Below, one piece after another: positions 5,511 to 38,966 of a stretch of DNA of 64,000 nt. The position numbers and the translations under genes are program-made. The notes under the pieces are model-generated. The model was not told the origin of the DNA. It made no database searches and worked only from the letters and a program-made list of their open reading frames with translations. Position 1 is the stretch's first letter, and each line of letters starts with the position of its first letter. The stretch lies in the IMG/VR virus record IMGVR_UViG_3300042009_000020, positions 37,780 to 101,779 of that record, one strand, 5' to 3'. This DNA is from a virus. Taxonomy: Duplodnaviria > Heunggongvirae > Uroviricota > Caudoviricetes.

Positions 5511-8500
5511 ATGCTTGATTATGAAATTCACGGTGGTAAAGGTGGTGGAGATAAACCACATACCCCTGTTGAAACACCTAATAACCTCCTTTCGGTTGCT
5601 TATGCAAAGGTGTTGATTGCTGTAGCTGAAGGTGAACTTGCTGGTGTTCCAACTAATCAAGACATCTTCCTTGACGGCACTCCACTTGCAAACCCAGATG
5701 GTTCACTTAACTTCGGTGGTGTTAAATGGGAATGGCGTTCGGGTACTCAGGATCAAACCTATATCCAAGGTCTACCAGAAGTATCAACAGAATACAACGT
5801 TGGTGTTGAGCTGAAGTCTACAACCCCTTGGGTTCGTAACATTACAAAGACTGAGCTTGATGGTGTACGTGTAACATTCCAATGGCCTGCTCTCTTGGAA
5901 CAAAAGTCGAATGGTGACACCGTTGGTGTTTCTATGGACTACAAGATCCAATTGTCGAAAGATGGTGGTGCCTTCACTGACTACAAAACATACACCATCA
6001 GTGGTAAAACCAACACAACATATGAACGTACACACCGTATTGATCTACCAAAGGCAACAACCGGTTGGATCATCCGTGCTGTTAAACTTACAGCAGATAC
6101 TACTTCTGGTACAATCCAAGACACAATGACTGTAAAGAGTGTCGCTGAAGTAGTTGACGTAAAACAACGCTATCCAAACACAGCCCTTCTGTATGTTGAA
6201 TTCGACAGTCGTATGTTTGGTGGTGGTTCAATCCCTAAAGTGTCTGTACGAACTAAAGGTCGTGTTATCCGTGTACCTGACAACTATGACCCAGTGGCAC
6301 GTACTTACAGTGGTGTTTGGAGTGGTGCCTTTAAGTGGGCTTGGAGTGATAACCCTGCGTGGGTCTACCACGATATCATTACTCAAGATCGTTTCGGTCT
6401 GGGTAATAAAGTCAGTCTGAACATGGTTGATAAGTGGGCACTCTATGAAATTTCACAACATTGTGATGTCATGGTTGATAACGGTTACAACGTTGGTGTC
6501 CTACAACCACGTCACACATGTAACATCTATATCCAAGAGAAGCGAGATGCTTGGCAAGTGTTGCGTGACATCGCTAGTATATTCAACGGTATGACCTATT
6601 GGAACGGTAATCAGTTTACAGCAATTGCTGACAAACAAGAACCATTCAACAACGCTCCTGTGTTCTCTCGTTCTAATGTAATTAATGGTCGTTTCGATTA
6701 TGCCGCTGCTGATGATAAGAGTATCTACACAAGTGCTCTGGTTAGTTATGATGAACCTGAAAACCATTACAACACAGCAGTGGAATCCACGTTTGAAACA
6801 GAACAGATTCTTCGCTGGGGTGGTGATCGTCAGATTGAAATCAGTGCCATTGGTTGTACATCTCGTGGTGAAGCACAACGTCGTGGTAAGTATGCATTAA
6901 TCACTAACATGTATAACCGTACCGTATCTTTCCGTACAGGTCTTCAAGGTCTGAATGACGAAGTGATGCCGGGTAAGTTGATCCATGTTGTCGACCCACT
7001 TATTGGTGGTCGTCCTTTCACTGGTCGTATTAAAGCTGCTGTTGGTACTGTACTCACACTGGATCGTACTGTTGATGCTGTTGCTGGCGATATCATGTAT
7101 ATCACCAAGTCGGATGGTGTTTCTGAAGGTCGTACAATCTCTGCTGTAGCTGGTAATATCGTTACCCTGCAAGTTGCGTACACAGAGTTACCAAAGCCAA
7201 ACGCTGTATGGTATCTCGAAGCTGCTGACCTCAAGTCGCAGTTGTTCCGTGTAACCAAGATCACTTCGCCAGAAGAGAGTGTGTATGAGATTGAAGGTGT
7301 TGAATACAACGACAGTAAGTATGCAGCAGTTGACACAGGTGCTAGACTTGAACCAAGACCAATCAGCGTAGTTCCACCAAACATTCAACAGCCACCAACC
7401 AATGTTAACATCATTTCTCAGACCTACGTTGAACAAATGATGTCTGTTAACACAATGGTTATCTCTTGGAATCAAACCCAGAATGCTGTTGGTTATGAAG
7501 TACAGTGGAAAGTTGAAAATGGTGACTGGGTAAACGCTGGTACTACTGGTGCTTTGTCTGTTACCGTGAAAGGTATTTACACCGGTCAATATGTTGCTCG
7601 TGTACGTGCTATCAACGCATTCGATATCAAGTCTATTTGGGTTTCAAGTGCACTGACTACACTTAACGGTAAGGTTGGTTTACCACCTGCTTTGACTAGT
7701 CTGTCAGTTGAACCACTTGTTTTTGGTATGAAACTTAACTGGACTTTCCCAGTTGGTGCAGAAGATACTGCTCGTACAGAAATCATGTACAGTCCAACTC
7801 AATTCTTTGCAAGTGCAACTAAGCTGGGTGACTTTGCTTATCCGCAAACGTCGCACTCAATCAATGGGTTGAAGGCTGGTCAGACTTTCTACTTCTGGGG
7901 TAGGTTGGTAGATAGAACCGGTAATATTGGTCCTTACTTCCCACTGACTACACAGAATGGTGTGATGGGTCTGTCGAGTACGGATGTTGCAGAGTATGAA
8001 GAATACTTCATAGACATGATCAACGAGTCTGCCCTTGGTCAACAACTTGGTGCGAAGATCGATAAGATTGAAATCATTGAAGCTGATCTTGATTTGGTTG
8101 AGATTGATCTTGATTTGGTTAAGACAGATGTTGATCAGATTAAGACTGATGTTGTGCAACTCGAAGTTGAATTTGATACAGCGATTGACAAGGTTAACAC
8201 TAACGTCAACTGGATCGAATCACAAATTGCAGGTGTAGAGCTTCAGTTGAAGAATGACCTTGTTATCACTCAAGGGGAACTTCAGACCAACCTTGATGAA
8301 CTTCAGGTTGACTTGGAAGCAGTAGACCAGATACTTGCTGATGCACTCGTTACCACTAAGAAAGATGTTGATGATATCAAAGAAGATGTTGTTGGTTTAA
8401 ACACTACTATTGATACTCTTCAGGATCAGGTTGATGGTATTACTGATGCATTGGAATACAACCCGAACAGAACATATGCTGCTGGTGAAGCCACACGTGT

Positions 8501-11500
8501 AGGAAACAATCTTTACCAAGCCACACAAAGTGTACCACTCGACACATCTCCACCAAATGCTACATACTGGAAAAATGTGGGTGAGGTCATCACTGCATAT
8601 GATGCGTTGGCTTCTCAGGTATCCACTAACACCACTAACATCACACAACAGGGTAATACACTCACTACCCAAGCTGGTCAGTTAACAGCTTTGACAACCC
8701 GAGTAAATACTGCTGAAGGTAACATCACTGGTAACAGTACAGCGATCACCAACCTTCAAACAACAGTGACCACACAAGGGAACAGTATTACCTCTCAAGG
8801 GAGTTTGATTACCGGTCTTCGGTCTGATGTAACTAGTCTGCAAACCGGACAATCTGGTAATGCTTCAGCGATCACTTCGTTAACCACACGAGTTACAACC
8901 GCCGAAGGAACGATTACTTCACAAGGTCAGTCAATTACTTCACTCAACGCCACTGTTGGGACTTTACAAACTGACTTAAATGGTGTAGAATCTACCGTAC
9001 TAGGACAGGGAACGGCCATTAATGGATTGACAACTACGGTCACCCAGCAAGGCAACACCCTTACTTCCCACGGTACAAGTATCACAGCACTTGAGAACAG
9101 TGTTTCGGATATCCAAACAGATGTATCTGGATTGACAACCACTGTTACCGGTCAAGGTACTTCCATCACCAATTTGCAAAACACTGTAACTCAGCAAGGT
9201 AACACAATCACAGCTCAGGCTCAGGACATTACAACCCTGAAATCTGATGTGTTGATTGATAAGACTGATATCAGCGGGCTCAAGACTACAACGACAGCAC
9301 AAGGTACTGCGATTACAAACTTGCAGACGACTGTGACCTCCCAAGGGAACAGCATCACATCAAACAGCAACAGTATCACCAACCTGACCAGCGATCTTCA
9401 CTTCAATGAATTGGATGCTCTCTACGAAGGTAATGAAACTGATGCTCAAATTGCTGATGCATTGGTCATCTCAAAAGCTACAGCTTCCGCAACAGAATCT
9501 CTGACAACGACAGTAACTTCTCATGAAGGTATTATCACAGCACAAGGTCAATCAATTACAGACTTGAAGGCTGCTCTTGAAGATTCGGATGGTAATATTG
9601 TTGGTCAAGCTAGTGCAATCGAGAGTCTTAAAACCAGTGTCACTCAACAAGGTAATACAATCAACTCACAAGGTGCTAGCATTACCAGTCTGGATAACAG
9701 CTTGGCAACCACTAACACCAATGTGGATGCTGCCCAACAAGCAGCAACTGATGCCAATACATTAGCTGGTGGAAAGGGTAAAGTATTCTTCCAAGCTTCG
9801 GCTCCTGCTGTTGGTGAGCAATTAAGTCAGAACCTTTGGATTGATACTACCGGGAACGCAAACACGCCTAAACGCTGGAATGGCTCGGCATGGGTAGCTG
9901 TAACTGACAAGGTAGCGACTGACGCTGCAACAGCAGCTGCTAACGCACTTACTCAAGTAGCTACAAAGGCTGATGCTTCAGCAGTGACGGCATTGACAAC
10001 CCGAGTAACTAACGCAGAAGGAACGATTACTTCACAAGGCACAAGCATCACCAGCTTGAACAACAGCCTGACAGTCACTAACACTAACGTGACAGCAGCT
10101 CAGAACGCAGCTCAGGCTGCTAGTGATCTTGCTGGTATCAAAGGTGAAGTGATCTACGGAAGCACAGCACCAACAACTGCACAACGTCTGCCTCAAAACC
10201 TTTGGATTGATACCACAAGTGGAGCAAACACTCCGAAGAGATGGTTGACGAACGCTTGGGTAGTTGTAACTGATAAAGTGGCTACAGACGCAGCAGCCGC
10301 TGCTGCAAGTGCTTTGACACAAGTTGCAACCAAAGCTGAAGCTAGTGCAGTAACATCGTTAACAACTCGCGTGACAAGTGCAGAGGGAACGATTACTTCC
10401 CAAGGTACAAGCATTACCAACCTGAACAACAGTTTGACGACTACCAATACCAACGTTAGTGCTGCACAAACAGCAGCTCAAGCTGCCAGTGATCTTGCTG
10501 GTACTAAAGGTAAGGTTCTGGTACAAACTACAACACCTGTTACCGCTGATCAACTTCCACAGAACTTGTGGATTGACATCACCAGCAGCAACAACACTCC
10601 TAAGAGATGGAACGGAAGTGCGTGGGTTGTGGTAACTGACAAGGTTGCTACTGATGCAGCAGCAGCCGCTGCTAATGCTTTGAGTGTTGCCAATACAAAG
10701 GCTGATGCATCTGCACTTAATGCCTTGACTACACGGGTTACCTCTGTTGAAGGTGTCACCACTTCACAAGGTTCTAGTATCACCACGTTGACAAACAACC
10801 TCAGTACCACTAACACCAACGTTACAGCCGCTCAGGCAGCAGCAGACGCTGCTAACACTCTTGCTGGTGGAAAGGGTAAGGTGTTCTATGGAAGTACAGC
10901 CCCTGCTACAGCAGAGCGTTTGAGTCAGAACCTCTGGATTGATACAACTGGTGGTTCTAACACACCTAAAAGATGGGATGGTTCAGCATGGACTGCTGTA
11001 ACTGATAAAGTGGCTACAGATGCCGCCATTGCTGCTGCTAACGCTTTAAGTGTTGCTAACACCAAGGCTGATGCCTCTGCTGTGACAGCTCTGACAAGTC
11101 GTGTAACAACGGCTGAAGGTAGTATCAGTTCACAGGGTACAAGCATTACAACGCTGAACAACAGTCTGACAACCACTAACAACAATGTAACCGCTGCTCA
11201 GGCTGCTGCTCAGGCCGCATCTGACCAAGCCGGTGCTAAAGGTGAAGTGATCTATGGTAGTACTGCTCCAGCAGTTGAGAAACGTCTTCCACAGAACTTG
11301 TGGATCGACACCACTGGTAATGCAAACACTCCTAAACGTTGGTTGACAAACGCATGGGTTGTGGTAACCGATAAGGTAGCTACTGATGCTGCAACAGCAG
11401 CAGCTAACGCACTTGCTCAGGTTGCTCTCAAAGCAGATAGTACAGCACTCACAGCTTTGACAAACACTGTTACCCAACAAGGTACTGACATCTCAGCGAA

Positions 11501-14500
11501 CGCTGGTAACATCACCATACTCAATACGGAGGTTCATTTCCAAGAGTTGGATGAATTGTACGCTGGTAATGAAACAGACGCCCAGATTGCAGACGCATTG
11601 ATGATTGCAAAAGGTACTGCTTCTGCTAACGAGTCATTGACTTCGGAAGTTACACAGCAGGGTGATTTGATTAAGGCTCAGGCCGAAAGCATTACTGACC
11701 TTGCATCGTCGTTGTCCTCAGTTGATGGTGATGTTTCTGCTCAAGGTGTTGCGATTGAAAATCTGAAAACTGTCACAACAGCTCAAGGCAATACAATCAA
11801 CTCTCAGAGTACAAGTCTCACGTCGTTGACCAACTCGTTGACCGTTACTAACACCAATGTCACAGCTGCGCAAACCGCTGCTGATGCTGCAAACACGTTA
11901 GCCGGTGGTAAAGGTAAGGTTATCGTCCAGAACGCAGCACCTGATGTTGCAGACAGGTTGGCACAGAACCTCTGGATCGACACCACTAGTGGAGCGAACA
12001 CTCCTAAAAGATGGTTGACTAGTGCATGGGTTGCAGTGACAGACAAAGTAGCTACCGATGCAGCAGCCGCTGCGGCAAGTGCACTTAGTCAAGTTGCAAC
12101 TAAGGCTGAAGCCAGTGCATTGACTTCATTGACCACTCGTGTGACAAGTGCTGAAGGAACAATAACAACTCAAGGTCAATCAATTACAACCTTGAACAAC
12201 TCTCTAACTACAACTAACACTAATGTGACAGCCGCTCAGGCTGCTGCGGATGCAGCGAATACATTAGCTGGTGGAAAGGGTAAAGTTATTGTTCAAACCG
12301 CTGCTCCAGCAGTTGGTGATCGACTTGCTCAGAACTTGTGGATTGACATTACAGGTAATGCTAATACCCCGAAACGTTGGGATGGAAGTGCTTGGACTGC
12401 TGTTACCGATAAGGTAGCTACTGATGCAGCAGCAGCCGCTGCTAACGCATTGAGTGTTGCTAACACTAAAGCAGACGCTTCAGCTGTAACGGCTCTGACA
12501 AGTCGTGTAACTACTGTAGAAGGCACTGTAACAACTCAGGGTCAAAGTATTACAACTCTGAATAACAGTCTGACTACTACCAATACCAATGTCACTACTG
12601 CTCAGGCAGCAGCTGATGCCGCTAACACCCTTGCGGGTGGTAAAGGTAAGGTGATGGTTCAAAGTGCTGCACCGGCTGTCGGAGATAGACTTGCTCAAAA
12701 CCTTTGGATTGATACAACAGGTAACGCCAATACTCCAAAGAGATGGGACGGTAGCAACTGGACTGCTGTGACTGACAAAGTGGCAACAGATGCAGCAGCC
12801 GCTGCTGCTAACGCCTTGAGTGTTGCTAATACTAAAGCTGATTCGTCAGCGGTATCAAGTTTGACAACACGAGTTACAACTGCTGAAGGTTTGATCACAA
12901 GTCAAGGTTCAAGTATTACTTCGCTGAATAACAGTCTGACTACTACTAACACTAACGTGACAACAGCTCAAAACGCTGCACAAGCTGCTAGTGATTTGGC
13001 TGGTAGTAAAGGCAAAGTGTTCTATCAAACTGCTGAACCTGCTGTTGGTGAAAGACTGTCGCAAAACCTTTGGATAGACATCACTGGTGCTGCAAATACA
13101 CCTAAGCGGTGGAACGGCAGTGCATGGGCAGCTGTAACTGATAAAGTGGCTACTGATGCAGCTACAGCTGCTGCAAGTGCGTTGACACAAGTAGCAACTA
13201 AAGCGGATGCTTCGGCATTGACAGCCTTGACTAACACTGTGACCTCCCAAGGTACTAGTATTACAACCAACGCTAGCAATATCACCCTGCTCAATACTGA
13301 CGTTCACTTTCAAGAGTTGGATGAGTTGTATGTCGGTAATGAAACTGATGCTCAAATTGCTGATGCGTTGATGATCGCTAATGGTGCTGCTTCTGCCAAT
13401 GAGTCGTTGACTGCTGAAGTTACACAACAAGGGGATCTGCTCACGGCTCAGGCTGTAATGATCACAGACCTTTCGAGTGAACTTTCTAATGTTGACGGTG
13501 ATGTGGTTGCCCAAGGGACGGCTATTGAAAACCTGAAAACTGTAACAACAGCACAAGGTAATACAATCAATTCCCACGGTGTATCGATCACATCTCTCAC
13601 TAACCGTGTGACAAGCGCTGAAGGTAACATCACGGGTCAAGCTACTGCTCTATCTGCTCTGGATACAAGAGTAACATCAACCGAAGGTACAGTGACTTCC
13701 CAAGGCACTAGTATTACAAGTTTGACAAGCTCCCTCGCCACAACCAACACTAACGTCACAACAGCCCAGAACGCAGCCAACGCTGCGAATACATTGGCTG
13801 GTGGTAAGGGTAAGGTTCTGGTACAAACCACAACGCCAGTGACAGCTGATCAACTCGTACAGAACCTTTGGATAGACATCACTGGTAGTGCGAACACGCC
13901 AAAACGTTGGAATGGTTCAGCTTGGGTTGCCGTGACAGATAAGGTAGCTACTGATGCAGCAGCCGCCGCTGCTAACGCTCTCTCAGTAGCAAACACCAAA
14001 GCTGATGCTGGTGCTGTAACCACTTTGACAACTCGTGTAACCAACGCTGAAAACAGTATCACTGCCTCGGCAACGAAGCTTGATGGTGTCTACGCTCAAG
14101 TTAACCCTACACTTGCTGGTGACGATGTTGGTCTTGCTGGTTCTGATAGTTATATGGTTGGTGTCTGGTCTGAAACCTCTGCTCGTATTGAGGATGGTGT
14201 TGTTTTGGGTTCACGTGTTGATACTGTTCAAGTTTCTAGTGATCAGGCGTTGACACTGGCTGAAGCTAACACTGCTGCTGTTCAACAAGTGTCACAAGCA
14301 CAGGTTGATGCAGACGGTAGAGCAAGCGCAATGTGGTCTGTCAAGTTGCAAGTTAACCAGTTCGGTCAGTATGTTACAGCTGGTATTGGTCTTGGTATTG
14401 AGAACGGTCCTGCTGGTCTGCAAAGTACATTCTTGGTGAACGCTGATACATTCGCAATCACTAACGGTGTTGATGCAAACCTAAGTGCACCATTTGTAGT

Positions 14501-14753
14501 GAATGGTGGTCAAGTATTCATCAAAGACGCATTCATTGCCAACGGTAGTATTACAATGTTGAAGATTGGAGACACTCTGCAATCTGATGACTTTGTTGCC
14601 GGTATCCAAGGATGGAGGTTGACTAAAGCTGGTACATTTGAAATCAACGGTCATGTACCCGGACAAGGTACAATGGTTATGACTAACCGCTCTTTGAGAG
14701 TATATGACGTAAACAACGTCAAGCGTGTGCAACTTGGGGATCTATCGGAATGA
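5511..14753 (+). CDS. J: host specificity / central tail fibre protein J, massively repeat-expanded (3080 aa)
   Basis: N-terminus (GGKGGG..HTP..NLLSV) and first ~900 aa align with lambda gpJ incl. FN3 domain; then ~1800 aa of Thr/Ala/Ser-rich tandem repeats; distinct C-terminal domain. Confidence 0.9.
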   Translation: MLDYEIHGGKGGGDKPHTPVETPNNLLSVAYAKVLIAVAEGELAGVPTNQDIFLDGTPLANPDGSLNFGGVKWEWRSGTQDQTYIQGLPEVSTEYNVGVELKSTTPWVRNITKTELDGVRVTFQWPALLEQKSNGDTVGVSMDYKIQLSKDGGAFTDYKTYTISGKTNTTYERTHRIDLPKATTGWIIRAVKLTADTTSGTIQDTMTVKSVAEVVDVKQRYPNTALLYVEFDSRMFGGGSIPKVSVRTKGRVIRVPDNYDPVARTYSGVWSGAFKWAWSDNPAWVYHDIITQDRFGLGNKVSLNMVDKWALYEISQHCDVMVDNGYNVGVLQPRHTCNIYIQEKRDAWQVLRDIASIFNGMTYWNGNQFTAIADKQEPFNNAPVFSRSNVINGRFDYAAADDKSIYTSALVSYDEPENHYNTAVESTFETEQILRWGGDRQIEISAIGCTSRGEAQRRGKYALITNMYNRTVSFRTGLQGLNDEVMPGKLIHVVDPLIGGRPFTGRIKAAVGTVLTLDRTVDAVAGDIMYITKSDGVSEGRTISAVAGNIVTLQVAYTELPKPNAVWYLEAADLKSQLFRVTKITSPEESVYEIEGVEYNDSKYAAVDTGARLEPRPISVVPPNIQQPPTNVNIISQTYVEQMMSVNTMVISWNQTQNAVGYEVQWKVENGDWVNAGTTGALSVTVKGIYTGQYVARVRAINAFDIKSIWVSSALTTLNGKVGLPPALTSLSVEPLVFGMKLNWTFPVGAEDTARTEIMYSPTQFFASATKLGDFAYPQTSHSINGLKAGQTFYFWGRLVDRTGNIGPYFPLTTQNGVMGLSSTDVAEYEEYFIDMINESALGQQLGAKIDKIEIIEADLDLVEIDLDLVKTDVDQIKTDVVQLEVEFDTAIDKVNTNVNWIESQIAGVELQLKNDLVITQGELQTNLDELQVDLEAVDQILADALVTTKKDVDDIKEDVVGLNTTIDTLQDQVDGITDALEYNPNRTYAAGEATRVGNNLYQATQSVPLDTSPPNATYWKNVGEVITAYDALASQVSTNTTNITQQGNTLTTQAGQLTALTTRVNTAEGNITGNSTAITNLQTTVTTQGNSITSQGSLITGLRSDVTSLQTGQSGNASAITSLTTRVTTAEGTITSQGQSITSLNATVGTLQTDLNGVESTVLGQGTAINGLTTTVTQQGNTLTSHGTSITALENSVSDIQTDVSGLTTTVTGQGTSITNLQNTVTQQGNTITAQAQDITTLKSDVLIDKTDISGLKTTTTAQGTAITNLQTTVTSQGNSITSNSNSITNLTSDLHFNELDALYEGNETDAQIADALVISKATASATESLTTTVTSHEGIITAQGQSITDLKAALEDSDGNIVGQASAIESLKTSVTQQGNTINSQGASITSLDNSLATTNTNVDAAQQAATDANTLAGGKGKVFFQASAPAVGEQLSQNLWIDTTGNANTPKRWNGSAWVAVTDKVATDAATAAANALTQVATKADASAVTALTTRVTNAEGTITSQGTSITSLNNSLTVTNTNVTAAQNAAQAASDLAGIKGEVIYGSTAPTTAQRLPQNLWIDTTSGANTPKRWLTNAWVVVTDKVATDAAAAAASALTQVATKAEASAVTSLTTRVTSAEGTITSQGTSITNLNNSLTTTNTNVSAAQTAAQAASDLAGTKGKVLVQTTTPVTADQLPQNLWIDITSSNNTPKRWNGSAWVVVTDKVATDAAAAAANALSVANTKADASALNALTTRVTSVEGVTTSQGSSITTLTNNLSTTNTNVTAAQAAADAANTLAGGKGKVFYGSTAPATAERLSQNLWIDTTGGSNTPKRWDGSAWTAVTDKVATDAAIAAANALSVANTKADASAVTALTSRVTTAEGSISSQGTSITTLNNSLTTTNNNVTAAQAAAQAASDQAGAKGEVIYGSTAPAVEKRLPQNLWIDTTGNANTPKRWLTNAWVVVTDKVATDAATAAANALAQVALKADSTALTALTNTVTQQGTDISANAGNITILNTEVHFQELDELYAGNETDAQIADALMIAKGTASANESLTSEVTQQGDLIKAQAESITDLASSLSSVDGDVSAQGVAIENLKTVTTAQGNTINSQSTSLTSLTNSLTVTNTNVTAAQTAADAANTLAGGKGKVIVQNAAPDVADRLAQNLWIDTTSGANTPKRWLTSAWVAVTDKVATDAAAAAASALSQVATKAEASALTSLTTRVTSAEGTITTQGQSITTLNNSLTTTNTNVTAAQAAADAANTLAGGKGKVIVQTAAPAVGDRLAQNLWIDITGNANTPKRWDGSAWTAVTDKVATDAAAAAANALSVANTKADASAVTALTSRVTTVEGTVTTQGQSITTLNNSLTTTNTNVTTAQAAADAANTLAGGKGKVMVQSAAPAVGDRLAQNLWIDTTGNANTPKRWDGSNWTAVTDKVATDAAAAAANALSVANTKADSSAVSSLTTRVTTAEGLITSQGSSITSLNNSLTTTNTNVTTAQNAAQAASDLAGSKGKVFYQTAEPAVGERLSQNLWIDITGAANTPKRWNGSAWAAVTDKVATDAATAAASALTQVATKADASALTALTNTVTSQGTSITTNASNITLLNTDVHFQELDELYVGNETDAQIADALMIANGAASANESLTAEVTQQGDLLTAQAVMITDLSSELSNVDGDVVAQGTAIENLKTVTTAQGNTINSHGVSITSLTNRVTSAEGNITGQATALSALDTRVTSTEGTVTSQGTSITSLTSSLATTNTNVTTAQNAANAANTLAGGKGKVLVQTTTPVTADQLVQNLWIDITGSANTPKRWNGSAWVAVTDKVATDAAAAAANALSVANTKADAGAVTTLTTRVTNAENSITASATKLDGVYAQVNPTLAGDDVGLAGSDSYMVGVWSETSARIEDGVVLGSRVDTVQVSSDQALTLAEANTAAVQQVSQAQVDADGRASAMWSVKLQVNQFGQYVTAGIGLGIENGPAGLQSTFLVNADTFAITNGVDANLSAPFVVNGGQVFIKDAFIANGSITMLKIGDTLQSDDFVAGIQGWRLTKAGTFEINGHVPGQGTMVMTNRSLRVYDVNNVKRVQLGDLSE
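8630..14060. repeat. hierarchical in-frame tandem repeats inside J
   Basis: ~10 copies of a 363-369 bp unit (NLWIDTTGNANTPKRW.GSAWV.VTDKVATDAA..) at 9833,10196,10559,10928,11291,11958,12327,12696,13062,13863, grouped in three super-repeats, each preceded by a ~300-bp variant segment (HF.ELD.LY.GNETDAQIADAL); shorter QG.SIT.L heptad-like repeats from ~8640. Confidence 0.9.
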
Positions 14754-16362: not shown

Positions 16363-19300
16363 ATGAGTACAATGGGTTTTGTTTCTACATTGAATGGAGC
16401 GGAAGATGCCGCTTCTCTTAACCTTGACTTCAAGAATCAAAAATATAAAGTGAGTGGTGTAAATAAGACGTTCAATGACTTGATCACGTTTACACGAGCT
16501 TCTGTTGGTGGTCGCTGGAATGCCAGTGGTGTTTATGAAGTGCTGCCGAATAACCAACCACGGTTTGATTATGACCCAATTACAAAGGTATTGAAAGGTT
16601 TACTTGTTGAGGAGCCTCGTACCAATTGGTTAACATATTCTAATGATTTAAGTAATGCTGCTTGGGTAAAAGTTAACTCAACACTAAACCCATCTTCCGC
16701 CGTATCGCCAGAGGGGTTACTGAATTCCGATATGGTAATAGAGAATACAGTCAGTACCAACCACGGGTTCAGCAGAGATATCACAGTGGTATCGGGTCTT
16801 ACATATACTGTTTCATTTTTCATCAAAGAGGCTGGACGCAACCTAGTAAGACTTCGACTCGGCCAAGCAGGTGGTGTTAGTGGTACAATCATAAGTGATG
16901 CTAACTTTGATCTGAATACAACCACATTTATTAGCGGTTTCTCTGCAACATCACCAACAATTGTAGATGTTGGTAGTGGTTGGAAAAGGATTTCATTAAC
17001 AGCAGTCGCCGCCAGCGCAACACTTGGGATTTCCGTGCTGTTCATAGATACAGGAACTAACGTATCATATGCTGGTAATGGTGTTTCTGGTGTTTCCTTC
17101 TATGGTATGTGTGTGGAATCTGGATCATTCTCAACGTCATACATCCCGACACCAACAATATTCACATCTCGTTCATCTACAGCAACATACTTTGATACAA
17201 ATGGTGTGATACAAACTGCCGATGTCAACGTAGCCCGTAGTAACGCTTACGGATATGATTCAACTGGGGTGATTAAGCCTATAGGTTTGCTGGTTGAAGC
17301 AGCCGCAACAAATATGCTTACCGCAAGTTCAAAGTACGATGACTCATCTTGGACTAAAGTAGCAAGTACCGTCGCGAGAGCTACAGAACCTGACCCAACT
17401 GGAACGCTCGATGCTTGGGCACTCAAACCATCAGCTGGTACGGGTGTGGTTGGTAGGATTTCAAAGCCATACTCTGCTGTATCTGGTACAACATACACGT
17501 TGAGTGTTTATGCTAAAAAGAAGGAGATTAGCTTCCTTAGATTACTAACGACAATTGACGGTACAGCAACTGTTCCACAAGCGCATTTTGATTTGAGTTC
17601 ATTGGTGACAGGTTCTGTTACAGCTTCAACGGCAATCGTTACTGGAGCTTCTAATGAGTGGGTAAGATGCAGTATTACATTCGTGGCACCAGTCACTGGT
17701 GCTGGTGTTGTATTCATTCAAGCGGCCACCAGCCTTACCACAGGAGCATACACAGGTGACGGCACACCCTCTGTCATCCTTTCATTAGCACAACTTGAAA
17801 CAGGAACGCTCAGTTCTTACATTCCAACCCCAGTAGTATTCACCAGTCGCGCATCAACTGCAACATATATCGGTTCAGATGGACTGCTGCAAACTGCTGC
17901 TGTAAACATTCCACGGATTGATTATGATCCTGTGAGTAAGATCAGCAAAGGACTATTGGTTGAAGCGGCGGCAACTAACCTTGCCACATATACAACAGCA
18001 CTACACAGGTCTTGGGCTGCTACTTATGTAGCTATTGTTCCTTATGATACAGTTTCCCCTGATGGTACACTCACTGGCGCCCGCCTTGTTGAAACAATAG
18101 CGGATAACGAGCATCGTCTTTACACTGCTAGTATTCCTGTTACATCAGGACTAACATACACTGGATCAATTTGGGTAAAAGCCGGATCGAGACGATATGC
18201 GTATCTTCACTTCTCCAACATTGGTTCATGGGGAACAGACACAACAATGTCTGCGAAGTTTGACACACTAACTGGTACAATTTTAGCAGCTGGTAGTGCT
18301 GTAATCGCTAAAGTAGAAACAGGACCGAACGGATGGTTCCGACTCATCATCACATCAACTGCTATATCTTCATCGCCATCCAGCGGAATGAGTATTGGTA
18401 TGTGCGACGATAGTGCCGCTGTATTGGGGCGTGACTACTATCTAGGTGATGGTAATAGTTTTATCCACATTTGGGGACCACAGTTTGAACAAGGATCATC
18501 TCCTACTTCTTACATTCCAAGTGTTGATACATTCTCCAGTCGCGCATCAACAGCTACATATATGGATGAAAATGGTGTACTGCAAACTGCATTATCTGGT
18601 GTGTCACGGGAAAACTCTTACGGGTATGATTCTACAGGTTCAATCAAACCTATTGGGTTGATGATTGAAGATTCTCGTACTAACATCTTAACTCACTCAA
18701 CTGTCCCTAACTTTGTGGCAACATGGTCAACAACTGGTGGTCTCGGTGTATTAGGGGGTCAACAGGCACCTGATGGTAGTTACACTGCTGTTGACATCAT
18801 TGAGGGTGGTTATACTGCTCAGCATGAAATCTTGCGGTTCTACACACCGACTTCTGGATTTAATTACACACACTCTGTTTACATCAAAAAGGTGAACAGG
18901 AAGTATGGTTACTTGTCAGCTTACTCATCTTCTGCGTCAAACACCTTCTTGGTTGATTTGGACACGGGTGATATTGTACAGAGTTGGACTTCTGGTTCCA
19001 TAGGAACAATGGCTCCGGTTCGTAAAGTTGAGCGAGCTGGTAATGGTTGGTGGAGACTTTCGTTAACACATACTGCCGTTAACGCAAACAACATCTACAT
19101 TATTGCTGGTGGCTCAGATTCATTAAGTCCGGGCTTGGTTAATACACGACCTTCATATTTGGGTAGTGGTATGGTGGGTGTAAGTATATGGGGACCACAG
19201 TGTGAGGTCGGTGCTGGGGTAACCACATACATTCCAACACCAGTAACATTCGCAAGTCGCGCTTCTACAGCAACATACTTTGATATCAATGGTGTATTGC

Positions 19301-20547
19301 AAACAGCAGCATCAGGTGTAGCACGAGAAAGTGCGTATGTGTATGACTCGGTTGGTGTATTGAAACCAGTCGGACTGTTGTTGGAAAGTCCTGCAACTAA
19401 CCTCACACTACAGTCTAATTCAGACACGACAATTATCGCAACGCGAGCAACATACACATCAACCGGTCAATTGTTTGTTGATGGTATAACACCATTACGT
19501 CTACTCAAGGAAGACAATACGGTAACTAGCAGTCACTTCGGACAACCACTTAACGTTACACTTGCAGCAAGTACCTATTATACTGGTAGTTACTTTGTAA
19601 AGGCTGCTGGACGAACTAAACTTTGCCTCCAAGCAGTTAACAGTGGTTCATGGTTACCTTCTAGCCCAAGGGTTGATTTTGACTTAACCGCTGGTACAGC
19701 GATTGGTAGCTTTGGTGCAACCGGAACAATTCAGAAAATGTCTGGTGGTATCTATCGAATTACGATAACAGCCACCACTGGTGCGTCAGGAGTCGCTTCG
19801 GCATTCTACCCTGTTCTAATTAACGATAGTGGATTGACTGTCTACAGTGGCGACGGTAGCTCTGGAATTTACATTGGTGGTTATCAGATTGAATTAGGTT
19901 TGGTTGCTACTTCGTATATTCCTACTGCTGGTGCTGCTGTTACTCGTGCTGGTGACGGAGTTACATCGTCAACAGTAACACGGGCTGCTGATGTTACATC
20001 CTCGGCTCAAGTAACACGGGCTGCTGATGTGTACACGTCACCAACAGTAACGCGGGCAGCTGATGTTACTTCATCTGTAACAGTAACACGTGCTGCCGAC
20101 ATTGCAAGTGTTAACAACTTGTCACCGTGGTTAAACGTCAATGAAGGTACTTTGTGCATTTCTATGTTGGAACGGAAGCCGTCGGCTAGTAGCACATTCC
20201 CATTGTCACTGGGTGTAGACTCAAACAACTACATTGGTCTTGCTTACGCGCCCGGTGGTGCAGGTCAGAGCGGTGCCGCATACATCCGTAAGGCTGGTGC
20301 GGGTGGATCTACATCTGATTCATCGTTAAGACTTAAAGTGGCTGCTGCATGGGATGCAACTCAGTTTTCTTCTGCGTCAGATGGTACGTCCAGAGGTACA
20401 GTCACTCACTCAGGTGTTCCAGTTCCAGTTTCAATGTACATAGGTCGTGGGCATTTCGGTGGAAGTACCACTAACAACCACATTCGGGACATCAAATATT
20501 ATCCATTGAAGCTGTCTAACTCAACAATGGAGGCACTTACTTTGTAA
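16363..20547 (+). CDS. modular tail fibre / receptor-binding protein with four tandem ~225-aa modules
   Basis: 1394 aa; motif S.YIPTP..F.SR.STATY.D.NGVLQTA....R...YGYDS.G.IKPIGLL.E..ATN recurs four times (~17150,17820,18490,19200) each followed by a ~170-aa beta-rich putative carbohydrate-binding module; 12-aa VTRAADVTSS repeats near the C-terminus. Confidence 0.75.
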   Translation: MSTMGFVSTLNGAEDAASLNLDFKNQKYKVSGVNKTFNDLITFTRASVGGRWNASGVYEVLPNNQPRFDYDPITKVLKGLLVEEPRTNWLTYSNDLSNAAWVKVNSTLNPSSAVSPEGLLNSDMVIENTVSTNHGFSRDITVVSGLTYTVSFFIKEAGRNLVRLRLGQAGGVSGTIISDANFDLNTTTFISGFSATSPTIVDVGSGWKRISLTAVAASATLGISVLFIDTGTNVSYAGNGVSGVSFYGMCVESGSFSTSYIPTPTIFTSRSSTATYFDTNGVIQTADVNVARSNAYGYDSTGVIKPIGLLVEAAATNMLTASSKYDDSSWTKVASTVARATEPDPTGTLDAWALKPSAGTGVVGRISKPYSAVSGTTYTLSVYAKKKEISFLRLLTTIDGTATVPQAHFDLSSLVTGSVTASTAIVTGASNEWVRCSITFVAPVTGAGVVFIQAATSLTTGAYTGDGTPSVILSLAQLETGTLSSYIPTPVVFTSRASTATYIGSDGLLQTAAVNIPRIDYDPVSKISKGLLVEAAATNLATYTTALHRSWAATYVAIVPYDTVSPDGTLTGARLVETIADNEHRLYTASIPVTSGLTYTGSIWVKAGSRRYAYLHFSNIGSWGTDTTMSAKFDTLTGTILAAGSAVIAKVETGPNGWFRLIITSTAISSSPSSGMSIGMCDDSAAVLGRDYYLGDGNSFIHIWGPQFEQGSSPTSYIPSVDTFSSRASTATYMDENGVLQTALSGVSRENSYGYDSTGSIKPIGLMIEDSRTNILTHSTVPNFVATWSTTGGLGVLGGQQAPDGSYTAVDIIEGGYTAQHEILRFYTPTSGFNYTHSVYIKKVNRKYGYLSAYSSSASNTFLVDLDTGDIVQSWTSGSIGTMAPVRKVERAGNGWWRLSLTHTAVNANNIYIIAGGSDSLSPGLVNTRPSYLGSGMVGVSIWGPQCEVGAGVTTYIPTPVTFASRASTATYFDINGVLQTAASGVARESAYVYDSVGVLKPVGLLLESPATNLTLQSNSDTTIIATRATYTSTGQLFVDGITPLRLLKEDNTVTSSHFGQPLNVTLAASTYYTGSYFVKAAGRTKLCLQAVNSGSWLPSSPRVDFDLTAGTAIGSFGATGTIQKMSGGIYRITITATTGASGVASAFYPVLINDSGLTVYSGDGSSGIYIGGYQIELGLVATSYIPTAGAAVTRAGDGVTSSTVTRAADVTSSAQVTRAADVYTSPTVTRAADVTSSVTVTRAADIASVNNLSPWLNVNEGTLCISMLERKPSASSTFPLSLGVDSNNYIGLAYAPGGAGQSGAAYIRKAGAGGSTSDSSLRLKVAAAWDATQFSSASDGTSRGTVTHSGVPVPVSMYIGRGHFGGSTTNNHIRDIKYYPLKLSNSTMEALTL
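19939..20109. repeat. 36-nt (12-aa) tandem repeat x ~4.75 inside fibre gene
   Basis: GTAACACGGGCTGCTGATGTTACATCCTCGGCTCAA-like units encoding VTRAADVTSSxx. Confidence 0.85.
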
Positions 20548-29675: not shown

Positions 29676-29704
29676 TTGACAGGAAATGATTTCCTCTGTA
29701 GAAT
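29676..29704 (+). promoter_or_regulatory. rightward promoter TTGACA-N17-TAGAAT
   Basis: exact consensus -35, TAGAAT -10; followed by ~330-nt untranslated leader. Confidence 0.65.
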
Positions 29705-30038
29705 GGGCAACCTTGACGTACAGAACGTCTCGCACTGAGAGAGAAATGTCATAATCACTCACCGGCTCAGTGTTAAAGGTCATGAAGAAAGCAGACCAAC
29801 ATAATGTGGAAATGGACCTTTAGTGGTTCTGGTACGACATTGCGGCTACTAGTAACAGTAGAAGCGTACCACGGGAGAAAGGTGTTGCTGCCTTATCCTA
29901 TCTCGTGTACCTTGCGTACATGCCTGATGAATCAGGGTGCTAGAATCGGTGAGCATGAAGATTTTCCTTGGACCTCGTTTGTAGGTCTTAAGGGGAAATC
30001 TATCTGTACTATCTCAATGAGCATATTAGGAGAGCAGT

Positions 30039-30236
30039 GTGAAGAGTGAAGGTGTTAAAGATATAGTGAAATGGTTAGATAAGAGATGTAAGGAGTTAAA
30101 GAAAGAGGTTGACGATAGGTCTGTATTCGGTGATGATTACTTTCAGGATCAAGCGAGAGCAAGATTTCAAGAATGTTTATCCATCAAGATCAGTACTGAG
30201 AAGTACATGAAATTGTTGAGACACCAAGGTGAATAA
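30039..30236 (+). CDS. hypothetical protein (GTG start)
   Basis: 65 aa, first ORF of rightward early cluster. Confidence 0.4.
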   Translation: MKSEGVKDIVKWLDKRCKELKKEVDDRSVFGDDYFQDQARARFQECLSIKISTEKYMKLLRHQGE

Positions 30237-30417
30237 ACCAGATGTAGACCTATGGGATAAAGAGTACCCTATAAAGATGAGAGAGTGGGTTGATTGGCAT
30301 GTTGAACATACAGAGATTGACAACCTGCAAGAGTTCATGCAGATGGCGAAAGGTAGGATTAACCCTCAACACATTAATGACTCGTGGGAGAATAAACATG
30401 TTGACACGGTGGATTGA
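30229..30417 (+). CDS. hypothetical protein
   Basis: 62 aa Trp-rich. Confidence 0.4.
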   Translation: MNKPDVDLWDKEYPIKMREWVDWHVEHTEIDNLQEFMQMAKGRINPQHINDSWENKHVDTVD

Positions 30418-30495
30418 AAGCTTCATTATGCTCATCGCCCGACACGGAAAGACAGAGTGTCATGAATGTGGAACATTTAAACCTAAAGGAATTGC

Positions 30496-30816
30496 TTGCA
30501 GATGCCGACCTACGACGAAAAGTTTATGCAGTTGCACAAAGCATTACGAGCAATGTCAGAAGTGATTTTAGAATTTCATACTGGTGTTAGTGAAGCAACT
30601 CAGAACCTTGAACTGGAGATGCAAAATCTTGATGCTCTGATGGCCCCTGTTGAGATTACAGCAGCGATGGTGTTAGAGTTGAGGCAACGTACAGGTGATG
30701 GAATGATAGCCTGTAAGAAGGCTCTGGTGCACTCTGACGGCAACATGATTAAAGCAGTTGACTATCTCAGAAACTCTGGTAATATCTCGCTCACTGATTC
30801 ACACTGGGGAAGATAA
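30496..30816 (+). CDS. EF-Ts N-terminal (UBA-like, EF-Tu-binding) domain protein; start uncertain (30496/30553/30619)
   Basis: [44 protein letters not shown] aligns residue-by-residue with E. coli Tsf [43 protein letters not shown] (~24/43 identical). Confidence 0.6.
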
Positions 30817-31495: not shown

Positions 31496-31524
31496 TTGAC
31501 CACACTGCTTCACAAGCGTATAAT
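31496..31524 (+). promoter_or_regulatory. consensus promoter TTGACC-N17-TATAAT
   Basis: perfect -10, 17-nt spacer, AT-rich upstream. Confidence 0.7.
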
Positions 31525-31558: not shown

Positions 31559-32455
31559 TTGAAATTTAGCAATCTGATCAAAGCTTCTGCACTGGCACTG
31601 GCTGCAACCCTTATGGTTGGTTGTGGTGAACGAGTTGAAGTTCCACCGGGTTTCGTCGGTAAGATCATGACGAAGGATGGTTATCAGGAAGGTTTGATTC
31701 CAACTTCCAAGATTCGACTTCCATTCTGTAATGCTTACTGTGATCGTCTGGTAGTTCTGGACACCACCGACAAGAGCTACACTGAGCCGATGGATATTTT
31801 CATTCCAGCGGATAAGCTGATCGTCAAAGTGGATTTGCGTGCAACATTGTCAGTTGATCCAACTAAAGCAGAAGCTATGTTTAACAAGCTTCCGCAAGTT
31901 GCAGAGAGTGATCAGTTTAGCAAGATTGCTGCTGAATCGATCTATAACACTTACGGTAAGCAAGTATTGCAGGCAGAGGTTCGTTCTTATCTGACTCGAT
32001 ACACCATCTCGGAAATTGCATCCAATGGCGAGAAGATTAACGCTGACATTCAAGTACTGTTGTCAAAAGTAATGGGTGAGCGTACACCGTTTACTGTTCG
32101 ATATGCCGGTTTGACTAATATCAAATACCCAGCAATCATTACCGAAGCACAAGAGAACAGTGCAAAACGTCGTGAGATGATCGCTCAGGAAGAAGCACAA
32201 CTTGAAGTATCTAAAGTTTCTCTTTCCCGTGAATTGCAAGAAGCGAAGATGCAGCGGGCAATTGATAAAGAGAAAGCTGAAACTGAAGCTCAAGCACAAA
32301 TGGTGTTGGCAGCTGCTGTAGATCCACGATCCCTGCGTATCAAAGAGCTTGAGATTCAGAAGATCATTGCTGAGAAGTGGGATGGTAGCTTGCCACAAAC
32401 AATCATGGGCGGTGATGGTAATATTCCGATGATCATGGACATGCGTAATAAGTAA
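31559..32455 (+). CDS. SPFH/band-7 (HflK/C-like) lipoprotein, TTG start
   Basis: lipobox LMVGC; SPFH-pattern segments (VEVPPGFVGKIMTKDG, IVKVDLRATLSVDP, VRYAGLTNIKYP) followed by Ala/Glu/Gln coiled coil; AGGAG SD 6 nt before TTG. Confidence 0.65.
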   Translation: MKFSNLIKASALALAATLMVGCGERVEVPPGFVGKIMTKDGYQEGLIPTSKIRLPFCNAYCDRLVVLDTTDKSYTEPMDIFIPADKLIVKVDLRATLSVDPTKAEAMFNKLPQVAESDQFSKIAAESIYNTYGKQVLQAEVRSYLTRYTISEIASNGEKINADIQVLLSKVMGERTPFTVRYAGLTNIKYPAIITEAQENSAKRREMIAQEEAQLEVSKVSLSRELQEAKMQRAIDKEKAETEAQAQMVLAAAVDPRSLRIKELEIQKIIAEKWDGSLPQTIMGGDGNIPMIMDMRNK

Positions 32456-36306: not shown

Positions 36307-38028
36307 ATGGAAATTGGTCTGCTAGGTGACGGTAAGACAGAATATTATAAAAACGATATTTGCTACGACTTGGAAACTTACCCTGACACTTTCACATTTG
36401 CCGCTGTCTTTGCTAGCGGTAAAGGAATGCGTGTTTATGAAATCAGTGACCGAAAGAATGATACTGAGGAAATGCTTGAGTTCATGCGTAATATTGCGAC
36501 AGGTGGATATCGGATGGTTGGTTTTAACAACTTAGGTTTCGATTACCCTGTTTTGCACTACATCCTTGAAAAGAGTAAGGCAGCACGCAAAGAAGGTAAA
36601 ACTTTGCAAATCACAGCATCTGAAATCTATAGTAAGGTTTGTAAGATGTTTGAACAGATGAAGTTCAACAAATTCGGAACCGCTGTTCGTTCTGATGAAG
36701 TAATGTTGAAGCAAGTTGACCTGTTCAAGATAAAACATTTCGATAATCACGCAAAGTCTACCTCTTTAAAAATGCTTGAATTCAACATGCGTTCTAAGAA
36801 CATTGAAGACTTGCCGTTTCCTGTTGGTATGCGTTTGAATGATGAACAGAGAGATGTTCTGATTGAATACAACAAACACGATGTTATGGAAACATTGAAA
36901 TTCTATTACAGGATTTTTGATGAAGTCAAAATGCGTCATGAACTGTCTGGTCAGTTCGGCTTTGACTGTACCAACTTCAATGATACGAAAATCGGCAAAG
37001 AGTTGTTCGTTAATCGTTTGGAATCTGCTAAGCCCGGTTGTTGCTATAAGATTGAGAAGAAAGGACCAAGGATGGTTCGGCAAATGCAACAAACAAAACG
37101 CAGTAGTATTAATCTTGGTGAGTGTGTTCTTCCGTACGTTCAATTCAATCGACCTGAGTTTAAAGCGATTCATCAATGGTTCCTTAATAAGACAATTGTT
37201 GAGACAAAAGGGTCACTCACAGATATTGAAGAACATGAGCTTGGTGATGTTGCTAAGTATGCAAAACTTCGTGTTAAAATGAAAAAGATGAATTGCCCTA
37301 TTGATGGGGCAAAGAATAAGCGCTATGTGCCAACCGAAGAACAAATCCTTGAGATGATGAAAGAACATCCCTTGGGTTGGGTTGAGGCTGTTGAACTCAA
37401 GAGTCCAAAGGGTGCCGCCAGCTATTGGTTCTGTTGGAATATTGCAGAAACCCTTAATGTTGTGATAAATGGATTCCAGTATGATTATGGTACTGGTGGA
37501 ATCCACGGTGCTAAACAAGGTGTCCATTCTAGCAATGACGAATACCAGATTTACAGCTATGATATCGCGTCAATGTACCCTAACGTCTCAATTCAGAACA
37601 AACTGTTCCCTGAGCATCTGGACATTCTGTTCTGTTCTGTTTATGAAGGGTTGTATCGTGAGCGTAAGAGTTATGATAAAAAAGATTCAAGAAACAAGGC
37701 GCTGAAATTGGCTCTAAACGGAACATATGGTGCATCTAATGACCAGTACAGTCCTATGTATGATCCTAAATTCACAATGAGTATCACAGTGAATGGTCAG
37801 TTGTTGTTGTCAATGTTGATTGATGATATGATTGAACAACTTGGTGCTGATGTGCTCATGTGCAACACTGATGGCTTTGAATTCATTGCTAAAAAATCTG
37901 ATGCTGACATGGTTGCACAAATCGTTAAATCATGGGAGAATGTGACCAAGCTTGAGATGGAAGGTGAGCTTTACAAGAAAATGCTCATCCGAGATGTAAA
38001 CAATTATCTTGCAATTAAACAGAAATAA
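36307..38028 (+). CDS. DNA polymerase, family B (3'-5' exo + pol motifs A/B/C), truncated after KxY-like motif
   Basis: ExoI YDLET; motif A YDIASMYPN, motif B KLALNGTYGA, motif C CNTDGF; ends 50 aa after motif C, immediately before a homing endonuclease gene. Confidence 0.65.
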   Translation: MEIGLLGDGKTEYYKNDICYDLETYPDTFTFAAVFASGKGMRVYEISDRKNDTEEMLEFMRNIATGGYRMVGFNNLGFDYPVLHYILEKSKAARKEGKTLQITASEIYSKVCKMFEQMKFNKFGTAVRSDEVMLKQVDLFKIKHFDNHAKSTSLKMLEFNMRSKNIEDLPFPVGMRLNDEQRDVLIEYNKHDVMETLKFYYRIFDEVKMRHELSGQFGFDCTNFNDTKIGKELFVNRLESAKPGCCYKIEKKGPRMVRQMQQTKRSSINLGECVLPYVQFNRPEFKAIHQWFLNKTIVETKGSLTDIEEHELGDVAKYAKLRVKMKKMNCPIDGAKNKRYVPTEEQILEMMKEHPLGWVEAVELKSPKGAASYWFCWNIAETLNVVINGFQYDYGTGGIHGAKQGVHSSNDEYQIYSYDIASMYPNVSIQNKLFPEHLDILFCSVYEGLYRERKSYDKKDSRNKALKLALNGTYGASNDQYSPMYDPKFTMSITVNGQLLLSMLIDDMIEQLGADVLMCNTDGFEFIAKKSDADMVAQIVKSWENVTKLEMEGELYKKMLIRDVNNYLAIKQK

Positions 38029-38042
38029 ACAATGAGGTTGTC

Positions 38043-38966
38043 ATGACGTTGACTAGAATGATTTACAGTGACAACCTCTTGTCACAAGACAAGATTGGTA
38101 TTTACAAGATCGAAAACCTTGTGAACGGTAAGGTCTATGTCGGTAAAACTGTTAATTTCCGAAGTCGCTACAACACCTACAACTCAGCATTCAGAACTAA
38201 TCGGACGACTCATATCAACCGATATCTAATGAGTTCTTTGTCAAAGTATGGCATTAGCAATTTCAAATTCAGCAAGCTTGAATCTTGCTCACTTTCTGAG
38301 ACTGGGGATCGAGAACTTTTCTGGATGGATCAGTTGGACTCGTGTTCTCGCAACGCTGGTTACAATCTGAGACGCGACAGTTCTACCGGCATGGAAACTC
38401 ATGAGGACACACGTGCTCACCTTTCTAGCAAAATTATCCAGCAATATGCAGATGGAAAGCGTGATAAAAGAAAGATCAGTGAATTCTTTAAAGGGTTTTG
38501 GTCGAATCCTGTTGTCAAAGACGAAATGGCGAAGCGTGTTGCTGAAGTTAACCGTTCTTATTTCATTCAGAGAGACAAGACCACATCTGACATTGTTTGT
38601 GTTTGGGATGGTATAAACCAGATCAAAGCAGCAAATCCACAATGGAAATGGCAGAATATTTATGCTGCGTGCAATGGAAGCAAACCATCATACCTTGGCT
38701 TCAAATGGGAACGCTCATCTGAAATCCCAGAAGGTTGTGAGCATCTTGTCCACAGAGGTGAGAATGTTCTGTTCAAGGATGTGGATAAAACACATTTACC
38801 TCGAACCAACTCACTGGTGTACACAGTGCATCATGGTGAATTTAAGGGTGAATACACTGGTGTTGAACTTTCTAAAATTTATGCGGCCATGTACAATGCA
38901 TTCTGCAAAGCAAAGTGTAATGAAATTTACTGGAAACGTGGTAAAACCAAAATAACTAGGGGATAA
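38043..38966 (+). CDS. GIY-YIG homing endonuclease
   Basis: GIYKIENLVNGKVYVGKT..R..Y motif; inserted between two polymerase-associated ORFs. Confidence 0.8.
   Translation: MTLTRMIYSDNLLSQDKIGIYKIENLVNGKVYVGKTVNFRSRYNTYNSAFRTNRTTHINRYLMSSLSKYGISNFKFSKLESCSLSETGDRELFWMDQLDSCSRNAGYNLRRDSSTGMETHEDTRAHLSSKIIQQYADGKRDKRKISEFFKGFWSNPVVKDEMAKRVAEVNRSYFIQRDKTTSDIVCVWDGINQIKAANPQWKWQNIYAACNGSKPSYLGFKWERSSEIPEGCEHLVHRGENVLFKDVDKTHLPRTNSLVYTVHHGEFKGEYTGVELSKIYAAMYNAFCKAKCNEIYWKRGKTKITRG

Follow-up and report, generated by a model that had tools for sequence, protein, structure and literature searches.

Does a small gene in a tailed phage encode a free-standing version of the domain with which elongation factor Ts (EF-Ts) docks on EF-Tu, and if so, what could such a protein do in the infected cell? 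The gene lies in a stretch of 64,000 nucleotides of viral DNA (hereafter the window), which is part of a ~107-kb siphovirus distantly related to the Pseudomonas phages phiPMW and vB_PpS_SYP (SYP). The likeness to these two phages is about 70% over a few genes, and these nearest cultured relatives infect the P. putida group. The window has a GC content of 41-46%, no tRNAs were found in it, and its genes include those for a lambda-type tape-measure protein, an RNA ligase, a UvrD-like helicase, a primase-helicase, a polymerase exonuclease domain and a ribonucleotide reductase. Downstream of the tape-measure gene, a single ORF of 3,080 aa (5511-14753, +) presumably encodes a giant tail or host-recognition protein, while an ORF of 1,394 aa (16363-20547) has no Pfam match. 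A GIY-YIG endonuclease ORF (38043-38966), directly after a 573-aa ORF with a weak polymerase-exonuclease match (36307-38966 for the pair, +), may be a homing endonuclease beside, or splitting, the DNA polymerase gene.

The gene, its start codon and its operon

We found that positions 30502-30816 (+) encode a protein of 104 aa, closed by a TAA stop codon at 30814-30816. The original prediction had described this ORF with an ambiguous start, and a TTG (30496) and an ATG (30502) are indeed both in frame; the ambiguity is resolved in favour of ATG 30502. Every orthologue alignment begins at the methionine of 30502, an identical 104-aa protein (P0001) starting at this ATG is called on a public 107,314-bp contig, and a Shine-Dalgarno-like AAAGGA (30485-30490, +), located 11 nt upstream of the ATG, is kept as AAAGG(A/G) in loci L009 and L010. 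The alternative start (TTG CAG, 30496-30501, +) was judged unused, since its bases are a by-product of the codons A-C-R of an overlapping Cys-rich frame and since L010 carries a TAG stop at the equivalent position, immediately before the ATG. Pairwise comparison of eight orthologous genes gave dN/dS values of 0.07-0.53 in 27 of 28 pairs, with synonymous sites near saturation, which indicates purifying selection on this frame and contradicts the possibility, raised with the original prediction, that it is untranslated. The ORF at 30502-30816 is a real protein-coding gene.

The Cys-rich ORF that had been noticed in another frame proved to be a separate, conserved gene of 55 aa (30398-30565, +), located in the +1 frame and overlapping the EF-Ts-N gene by 64 nt. 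Its product, which has no Pfam or PHROG match, combines a hydrophobic N-terminal helix with a CxxC-x11-CxC motif. The gene is conserved in at least seven loci, with orthologues in L005, L009, L010, L011, L016 and L108 (in the last it was missed by the gene caller); they keep the motif ML(T/D)RW..ARHGK.EC..CG.(F/W)KPKG..CRC while showing synonymous changes in the DNA. Between the window and L108, the Cys-rich protein is 88% identical and the EF-Ts-N protein 38%. The two genes do not form an obligate pair: a higher-GC viral contig (L114) has the Cys-rich gene without the EF-Ts-N gene, six loci (L004, L006, L013, L018, L109 and L110) show the reverse, and where both occur the variable Cys-rich tail reaches 13-64 nt into the EF-Ts-N gene, depending on the locus. 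The synthesis of a single protein from both frames by -1 frameshifting was likewise rejected, since inspection of the overlap showed no canonical slippery heptamer and the ATG and Shine-Dalgarno-like sequence are conserved.

The EF-Ts-N gene is the fourth of a rightward operon that follows a near-consensus sigma70-type promoter (TTGACA-17-TAGAAT, 11 of 12 consensus positions; 29676-29704, +), found by promoter scan together with a divergent partner in the same intergenic region (29660-29633, opposite orientation). The TTGACA hexamer recurs in L004, L005 and L011 together with the block TCTGTAGAATGGGCAACCTTGA and the TAGAAT block, the last of which is also kept in L108. The first gene of the operon (65 aa; 30039-30236, +) aligns over its full length with the gene upstream of the L006 orthologue, sharing blocks such as KISTEKYMK.LRHQ. 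Another upstream gene of the operon (62 aa; 30229-30417, +) shows 44-47% identity to the genes directly upstream of the L004 and L005 orthologues. The promoter type suggests that the operon would be expressed early by the host polymerase, and this promoter and the early-gene-like position agree with the small early protein originally proposed.

The promoter is separated from the first gene by a non-coding leader of ~330 nt (29705-30038, +) that is conserved. Its DNA identity among the window, L004, L005 and L006, estimated by eye from alignment blocks, is ~85-95%, far above the conservation of the flanking genes, whose synonymous sites are saturated. RNAalifold predicted 79 pairs, 17 of them with compensatory changes, and no Rfam match was obtained; the leader may represent a new structured RNA. 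In phiPMW, a region annotated as a coding sequence (PMW_181) matches it with 76% identity over 176 nt, and SYP conserves it in part; a mechanical ORF inside it (29804-30049) is probably not coding. Further downstream, an SPFH/Band_7 protein with a lipoprotein-type N-terminus (…ATLMVGCGE…; 31559-32455, +) is encoded behind a near-consensus promoter of its own (TTGACC-17-TATAAT, 31496-31524). This gene is the most conserved of the region, both across relatives and in cultured Pseudomonas and Aeromonas phages.

The EF-Ts N-terminal domain and the phage family built on it

The original prediction rested on a stretch of ~43 residues that resembles the N-terminal domain of EF-Ts, and this likeness was borne out by single-sequence, profile and structural comparisons. 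Residues 51-96 align without gaps to residues 2-47 of E. coli EF-Ts (1efu_B) in a single-sequence phmmer search (E=3.1e-8), and a profile built from six orthologues matches the EF-Ts N-domain with E=9.6e-14. Two AlphaFold2 models of the 104-aa protein (pLDDT 82.5 and 84.3) place helices at residues 3-25 and 31-47, which form a hairpin, and at residues 54-64, 68-77 and 82-91, which form a three-helix domain. The latter superposes on solved EF-Ts N-domains with 0.5-1.1 Å over 42-44 residues, and is 52-58% identical to the solved EF-Ts structures against 13-27% for UBA structures. The Pfam model PF25025 (EF-Ts_N) gave 24 bits (E=3.7e-5), below its gathering score of 33.2 bits; genuine EF-Ts fragments also reach just 22-31 bits on this mitochondrial-derived model, so the sub-threshold score is not counter-evidence. 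The UBA profile PF00627 gave E=0.021 and 15.1 bits against a cut-off of 22.4, short of what would identify a eukaryote-type ubiquitin-binding UBA domain. Thus, the three-helix (TS-N/UBA-like) domain at residues 51-93 (30652-30780, +) is a bona fide homologue of the EF-Ts N-terminal domain. Its motif ends in GN...AVDYLRNSG, and the Arg and the Lys known from the EF-Tu contact are both present.

The rest of the protein differs from EF-Ts. The N-terminal hairpin (residues 3-47; 30508-30642, +) is predicted as a block with a pLDDT of 73-94 and is conserved in the family, including an invariant L43, while the C-terminal tail (residues 95-104; 30784-30813, +) is predicted to be disordered (pLDDT <50) and is variable or absent among family members. 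As originally stated, the core and dimerisation parts of EF-Ts are missing: there is no PF00889 match, and the protein stops 11 residues past the N-domain. By ORF reading and Pfam, none of the EF-Ts core, the TDFV motif (Asp80/Phe81), the coiled coil and the C-terminal module was found in the 104-aa protein; judging from its sequence, a protein lacking these elements should be unable to act as an exchange factor. Nor does the gene lie in the chromosomal rpsB-tsf setting; it sits in a phage operon, with small hypothetical genes running on to the SPFH/Band_7 gene. We also attempted to infer the donor lineage of the domain. This failed, since identity to Pseudomonas EF-Ts (26/44) is no higher than identity to Desulfovibrio EF-Ts (30/44) and the domain is too short.

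A word-indexed search returned five relatives of 94-104 aa with 57-68% identity, carried on three contigs of ~100 kb, one of 22.7 kb and one of 2.8 kb. A profile search covering 1.84 billion representatives yielded ~20 clusters, formed at 50% identity and with members of 87-113 aa, that matched over both hairpin and domain, whereas thousands of ordinary EF-Ts matched over the domain only; sub-alignment scans of viral contigs added a few extra loci. Six residues (L43, G65, G67, C71, G80 and A85) are invariant in an alignment of 25 sequences and five more (T53, L60, R61, T64 and L75) nearly so; the Met of the GM pair is conserved as well. Distant members share the genomic slot of the window gene: P0012 and P0020 (38% and 45% identical) both lie soon after a divergent intergenic region, early in a rightward operon and upstream of SPFH/Band_7. 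In P0012 the UvrD-like helicase operon stands on the opposite strand; the contig carrying P0020 is not long enough to reveal it. The cultured relatives phiPMW and SYP are without the hairpin + EF-Ts-N gene, which is hence accessory. Among the 80 loci listed by a scan of 185,579 bacterial and archaeal species (one genome each), none encodes the two-module protein; the matches listed are only genuine tsf N-termini, with at most 72% identity (Desulfovibrio) over ~40 residues. Among 50,697 GenBank phage records, the two-module type occurs solely in one uncultured 485-kb phage, and neither the 104-aa protein nor its neighbours nor the RSP15 and L017 variants described below match a PHROG at E<=0.01 (PHROGs v4). 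In the data examined, the family is thus accessory, positionally conserved, fast-evolving and restricted to phage contigs. In the BFVD structure collection, the two-module fold recurs in a viral protein of 85 aa, and Sinorhizobium phage phiN3 has a 59-aa entry named 'Elongation factor Ts-like protein'. Our literature searches turned up no study devoted to a phage protein with an EF-Ts N-domain. We regard the phage family as real and uncharacterised, and as built on a known domain, that of the EF-Ts N-terminus.

The domain also occurs without the hairpin and in other architectures. The hairpin is missing from the truncated copies L016 (62 aa) and P0010, which retain the domain motif. EF-Ts N-like domains were found in proteins of 233 aa (L017, 3971-4672), 253 aa (L024, 3336-4097), 67 aa (L025) and 112 aa (L026, 3501-3839, in a 348-kb phage), and in a 327-aa protein (P0135) that also contains DUF551. 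The loop reads TG(E/D)G in L017, L024 and P0135, and TQVS in L026. These proteins are all unannotated or merely auto-annotated, and a search of them for fused enzymatic domains, which would have pointed to a targeting role of the module, gave DUF551 or nothing recognisable. The recurrence of the domain without the hairpin and in varied architectures suggests an autonomous, portable binding module. In Ralstonia phage RSP15, an ORF of 65-70 aa between ORF136 and ORF137 (L003 2459-2671; LC121084.1 ~110782-110994), absent from the GenBank annotation, has a product with an EF-Ts N-like domain and, after it, CPHCGK at the C-terminus.

Some apparent phage homologues were discarded, because bacterial DNA in phage records creates false phage EF-Ts matches. 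The record of Pseudomonas phage Y1 (OQ572403.1, UNVERIFIED), which at first seemed the best phage homologue (tblastn E=3e-8), contains a full rpsB-tsf locus and is host contamination, and the matching sequences of 'Acinetobacter phage MD-2021a' and of Salmonella records carry the annotation tsf or elongation factor Ts. The same search also brought up EF-Ts-type matches in several 'phage' records of Enterococcus, Listeria and Staphylococcus that lack annotation.

Proposed docking on EF-Tu and the rival explanations

EF-Ts touches EF-Tu at helix D of the G domain (PMC9825190). The part of EF-Ts that does so in the 1EFU complex is its N-terminal domain. In the EF-Ts of Mycobacterium tuberculosis (Mtb), R13 and K24 of this domain contact EF-Tu, K24 forming a salt bridge with D144/D145, and mutation of R13 disrupts the complex (PMC9529903). 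The equivalent of R13 in the phage protein, R61 (the Arg of 'LR'), is nearly invariant in the family. The equivalent of K24, the Lys after the conserved Cys, is kept in the window protein, which has both Lys of the pair; it is found in 61 of 61 sampled cellular EF-Ts but in only 10 of 23 family members, a variability which implies that part of the surface facing EF-Tu is under relaxed or altered constraint. The loop Ala of EF-Ts (55/61) is replaced by Glu or Asp in 21 of 23 family members, those that fit the motif pattern. A TGEG loop is nonetheless present in genuine Pseudomonas-lineage EF-Ts, including one named P. fulva, so a TG(E/D)G loop does not speak against EF-Tu binding and loses force as proof of a shift to another target. 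Six residues reported as vital for the EF-Tu interaction of E. coli EF-Ts (K51, G54, D80, F81, I125 and G126) are all missing from the phage protein; since the N-domain in addition gives only part of the interface, the domain on its own may bind with low affinity. The most conserved motif also forms the core of the fold, and its conservation is therefore not in itself proof of an EF-Tu interface. We regard EF-Tu binding by the phage protein as plausible.

Our preferred reading, which we hold tentatively and at somewhat less than an even chance, is that the protein is a non-catalytic mimic of the EF-Ts docking domain that sits on helix D of EF-Tu. Early in infection, the LR..TG(E/D)GM..C.KAL surface would dock on helix D of the G domain of host EF-Tu, with either of two consequences. 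The protein might occupy or shield helix D on part of the EF-Tu pool, thereby tuning nucleotide exchange or ribosome recruitment, or blocking effectors that anchor at helix D. Alternatively, EF-Tu might serve as an abundant handle, to which the hairpin would bring a second partner. EF-Tu makes up 6-10% of the proteome (PMC13581612), so that even a weak binder would be largely EF-Tu-bound; by the same stoichiometry, the sequestration of EF-Tu considered in the original prediction is unlikely, and it is more plausible that helix D is occupied or shielded on part of the pool, or that EF-Tu serves as a handle.

The docking reading must be weighed against a possible, though rather doubtful, alternative, in which the domain was captured from tsf and evolved in phages into a general three-helix protein-binding module whose target is not helix D. 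It could then bind a different translational GTPase, a site on the ribosome or a protein of the phage, with the hairpin as a second interaction or oligomerisation element. The variable Lys and the replaced loop Ala described above speak for such a shift, UBA-like folds bind many ligands, and in other phages the domain is joined to several partners that are unrelated and unannotated. Set against this are the near invariance of the contact Arg, the TGEG loop of functional Pseudomonas-lineage EF-Ts, and an identity to EF-Ts (52-58% for the solved structures, up to 72% for Desulfovibrio) far from the 13-27% seen with other UBA domains. A decaying or untranslated scrap of a captured tsf, for which one could invoke the truncated 62-aa copy of L016 and the lack of the gene in cultured relatives, is very improbable: the low dN/dS at saturated synonymous sites, the conserved start codon and Shine-Dalgarno-like sequence, and the two-module architecture and genomic slot kept across ~20 diverged clusters all argue for a maintained protein.

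Two further readings share with the preferred one the assumption that EF-Tu is bound. A miniature EF-Ts that speeds EF-Tu recycling, and so boosts translation, would follow an idea published for Colossus gp247 (PMC3556154) and Ceduovirus gp21 (PMC7150918); those cases contain other parts of EF-Ts, and the 104-aa protein has none of the parts needed to expel GDP (core subdomain N with Asp80/Phe81, subdomain C and the C-terminal module). This anatomy effectively refutes a mini exchange factor, to which we attach next to no probability. Binding could instead protect EF-Tu against defence systems, namely Lit, the type IV Thoeris caspase or EF-Tu-modifying toxins. EF-Tu is a target of both Lit and type IV Thoeris and is co-opted by Avs7, the early region around the gene is variable, a neighbouring locus has, a few genes downstream, a Lar-like gene for restriction alleviation (weak Pfam match), and EF-Ts largely prevents the ADP-ribosylation of EF-Tu by the helix-D-anchored toxin TreTu (PMC9825190). 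However, the cleavage sites of Lit and the Thoeris IV caspase lie in switch I, at or near R45 and R59/G59-I60, and not in helix D, where EF-Ts makes its contact, so the protection from Lit suggested in the original prediction finds no steric support. The Thoeris IV caspase is moreover promiscuous, Avs7 binds domains II and III of EF-Tu, and a shield would require near-stoichiometric expression for so abundant a protein. We consider an anti-defence shield improbable, and effectors that anchor on helix D would appear to be the sole defence-related targets for which shielding has a structural rationale.

Comparison with known systems

The closest known relative of the domain is the EF-Ts N-domain itself (E. 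coli residues 1-54, 1EFU chain B; PF25025/PF00627), with which it shares the three-helix fold and the motif I-T-x-x-x-V-x-x-L-R-x-x-T-G-x-G-M-x-x-C-x-K-A-L...G-D...A...R..G, including the contact Arg. Unlike EF-Ts, the phage protein presents this domain on its own behind a family-specific hairpin, with a family loop of TG(E/D)G instead of TGAG and an unconserved Lys after the Cys, and its gene belongs to an early-type operon, not to rpsB-tsf. Small phage proteins with a piece of EF-Ts, for which an action on EF-Tu has been proposed, have precedents in gp247 of Caulobacter phage Colossus (98 aa; PMC3556154) and gp21 of the Lactococcus Ceduovirus (PMC7150918), both speculated to speed translation. 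By their published descriptions, gp247 corresponds to core subdomain N with an equivalent of Phe81, and gp21 resembles the C-terminal/dimerisation part of EF-Ts, whereas the 104-aa protein consists of the N-domain and a hairpin.

Helix D is used by other proteins. The C-terminal domain of L7/L12 is reported to bind it through an interface described as homologous to that of EF-Ts and EF-Tu (PMC5770553, PMC9825190), and is thus a functional analogue of the role proposed here; L7/L12 is part of the ribosomal stalk, and no relationship between its sequence and that of the phage protein is detectable. The ADP-ribosyltransferase TreTu, an Rhs toxin of Salmonella, anchors on helix D, and EF-Ts blocks its access (PMC9825190). 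The likeness is that of a contested docking site, whose occupancy excludes another protein; TreTu differs in being an enzyme of unrelated fold, and a bacterial toxin rather than a phage protein. It is conceivable, although we consider it clearly less probable than not, that several phage lineages carry a portable plug for helix D, a copy of the docking domain with a TG(E/D)G loop that stands alone, behind a hairpin or fused to other sequences, and that occupies or exploits the EF-Tu surface common to EF-Ts, L7/L12 and helix-D-anchoring toxins. If so, it would be the first viral mimic of the docking domain of a bacterial exchange factor, and would represent a new class of early host-takeover or anti-defence factors whose target is the most abundant protein of the cytoplasm. 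Recent work has placed EF-Tu at the centre of phage-host conflict, being cut by Lit and the Thoeris IV caspase, used in the Avs7 sensor and modified by toxins; very few phage proteins are known to address it directly. A protein that binds helix D would show a phage tuning or shielding elongation without destroying it, and would provide a natural minimal EF-Tu-binding module. The gain for annotation is more immediate: the family and the Cys-rich gene are largely unannotated and were missed in RSP15 and L108, respectively, and the leader is mis-called as a coding sequence in phiPMW.

In the use of the EF-Tu/EF-Ts pair by a virus, the nearest parallel is the Q-beta replicase, where a phage exploits the two factors as structural components. 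There, an RNA phage recruits the full-length EF-Ts of its host; here, a DNA phage encodes a single domain of EF-Ts in its own genome.
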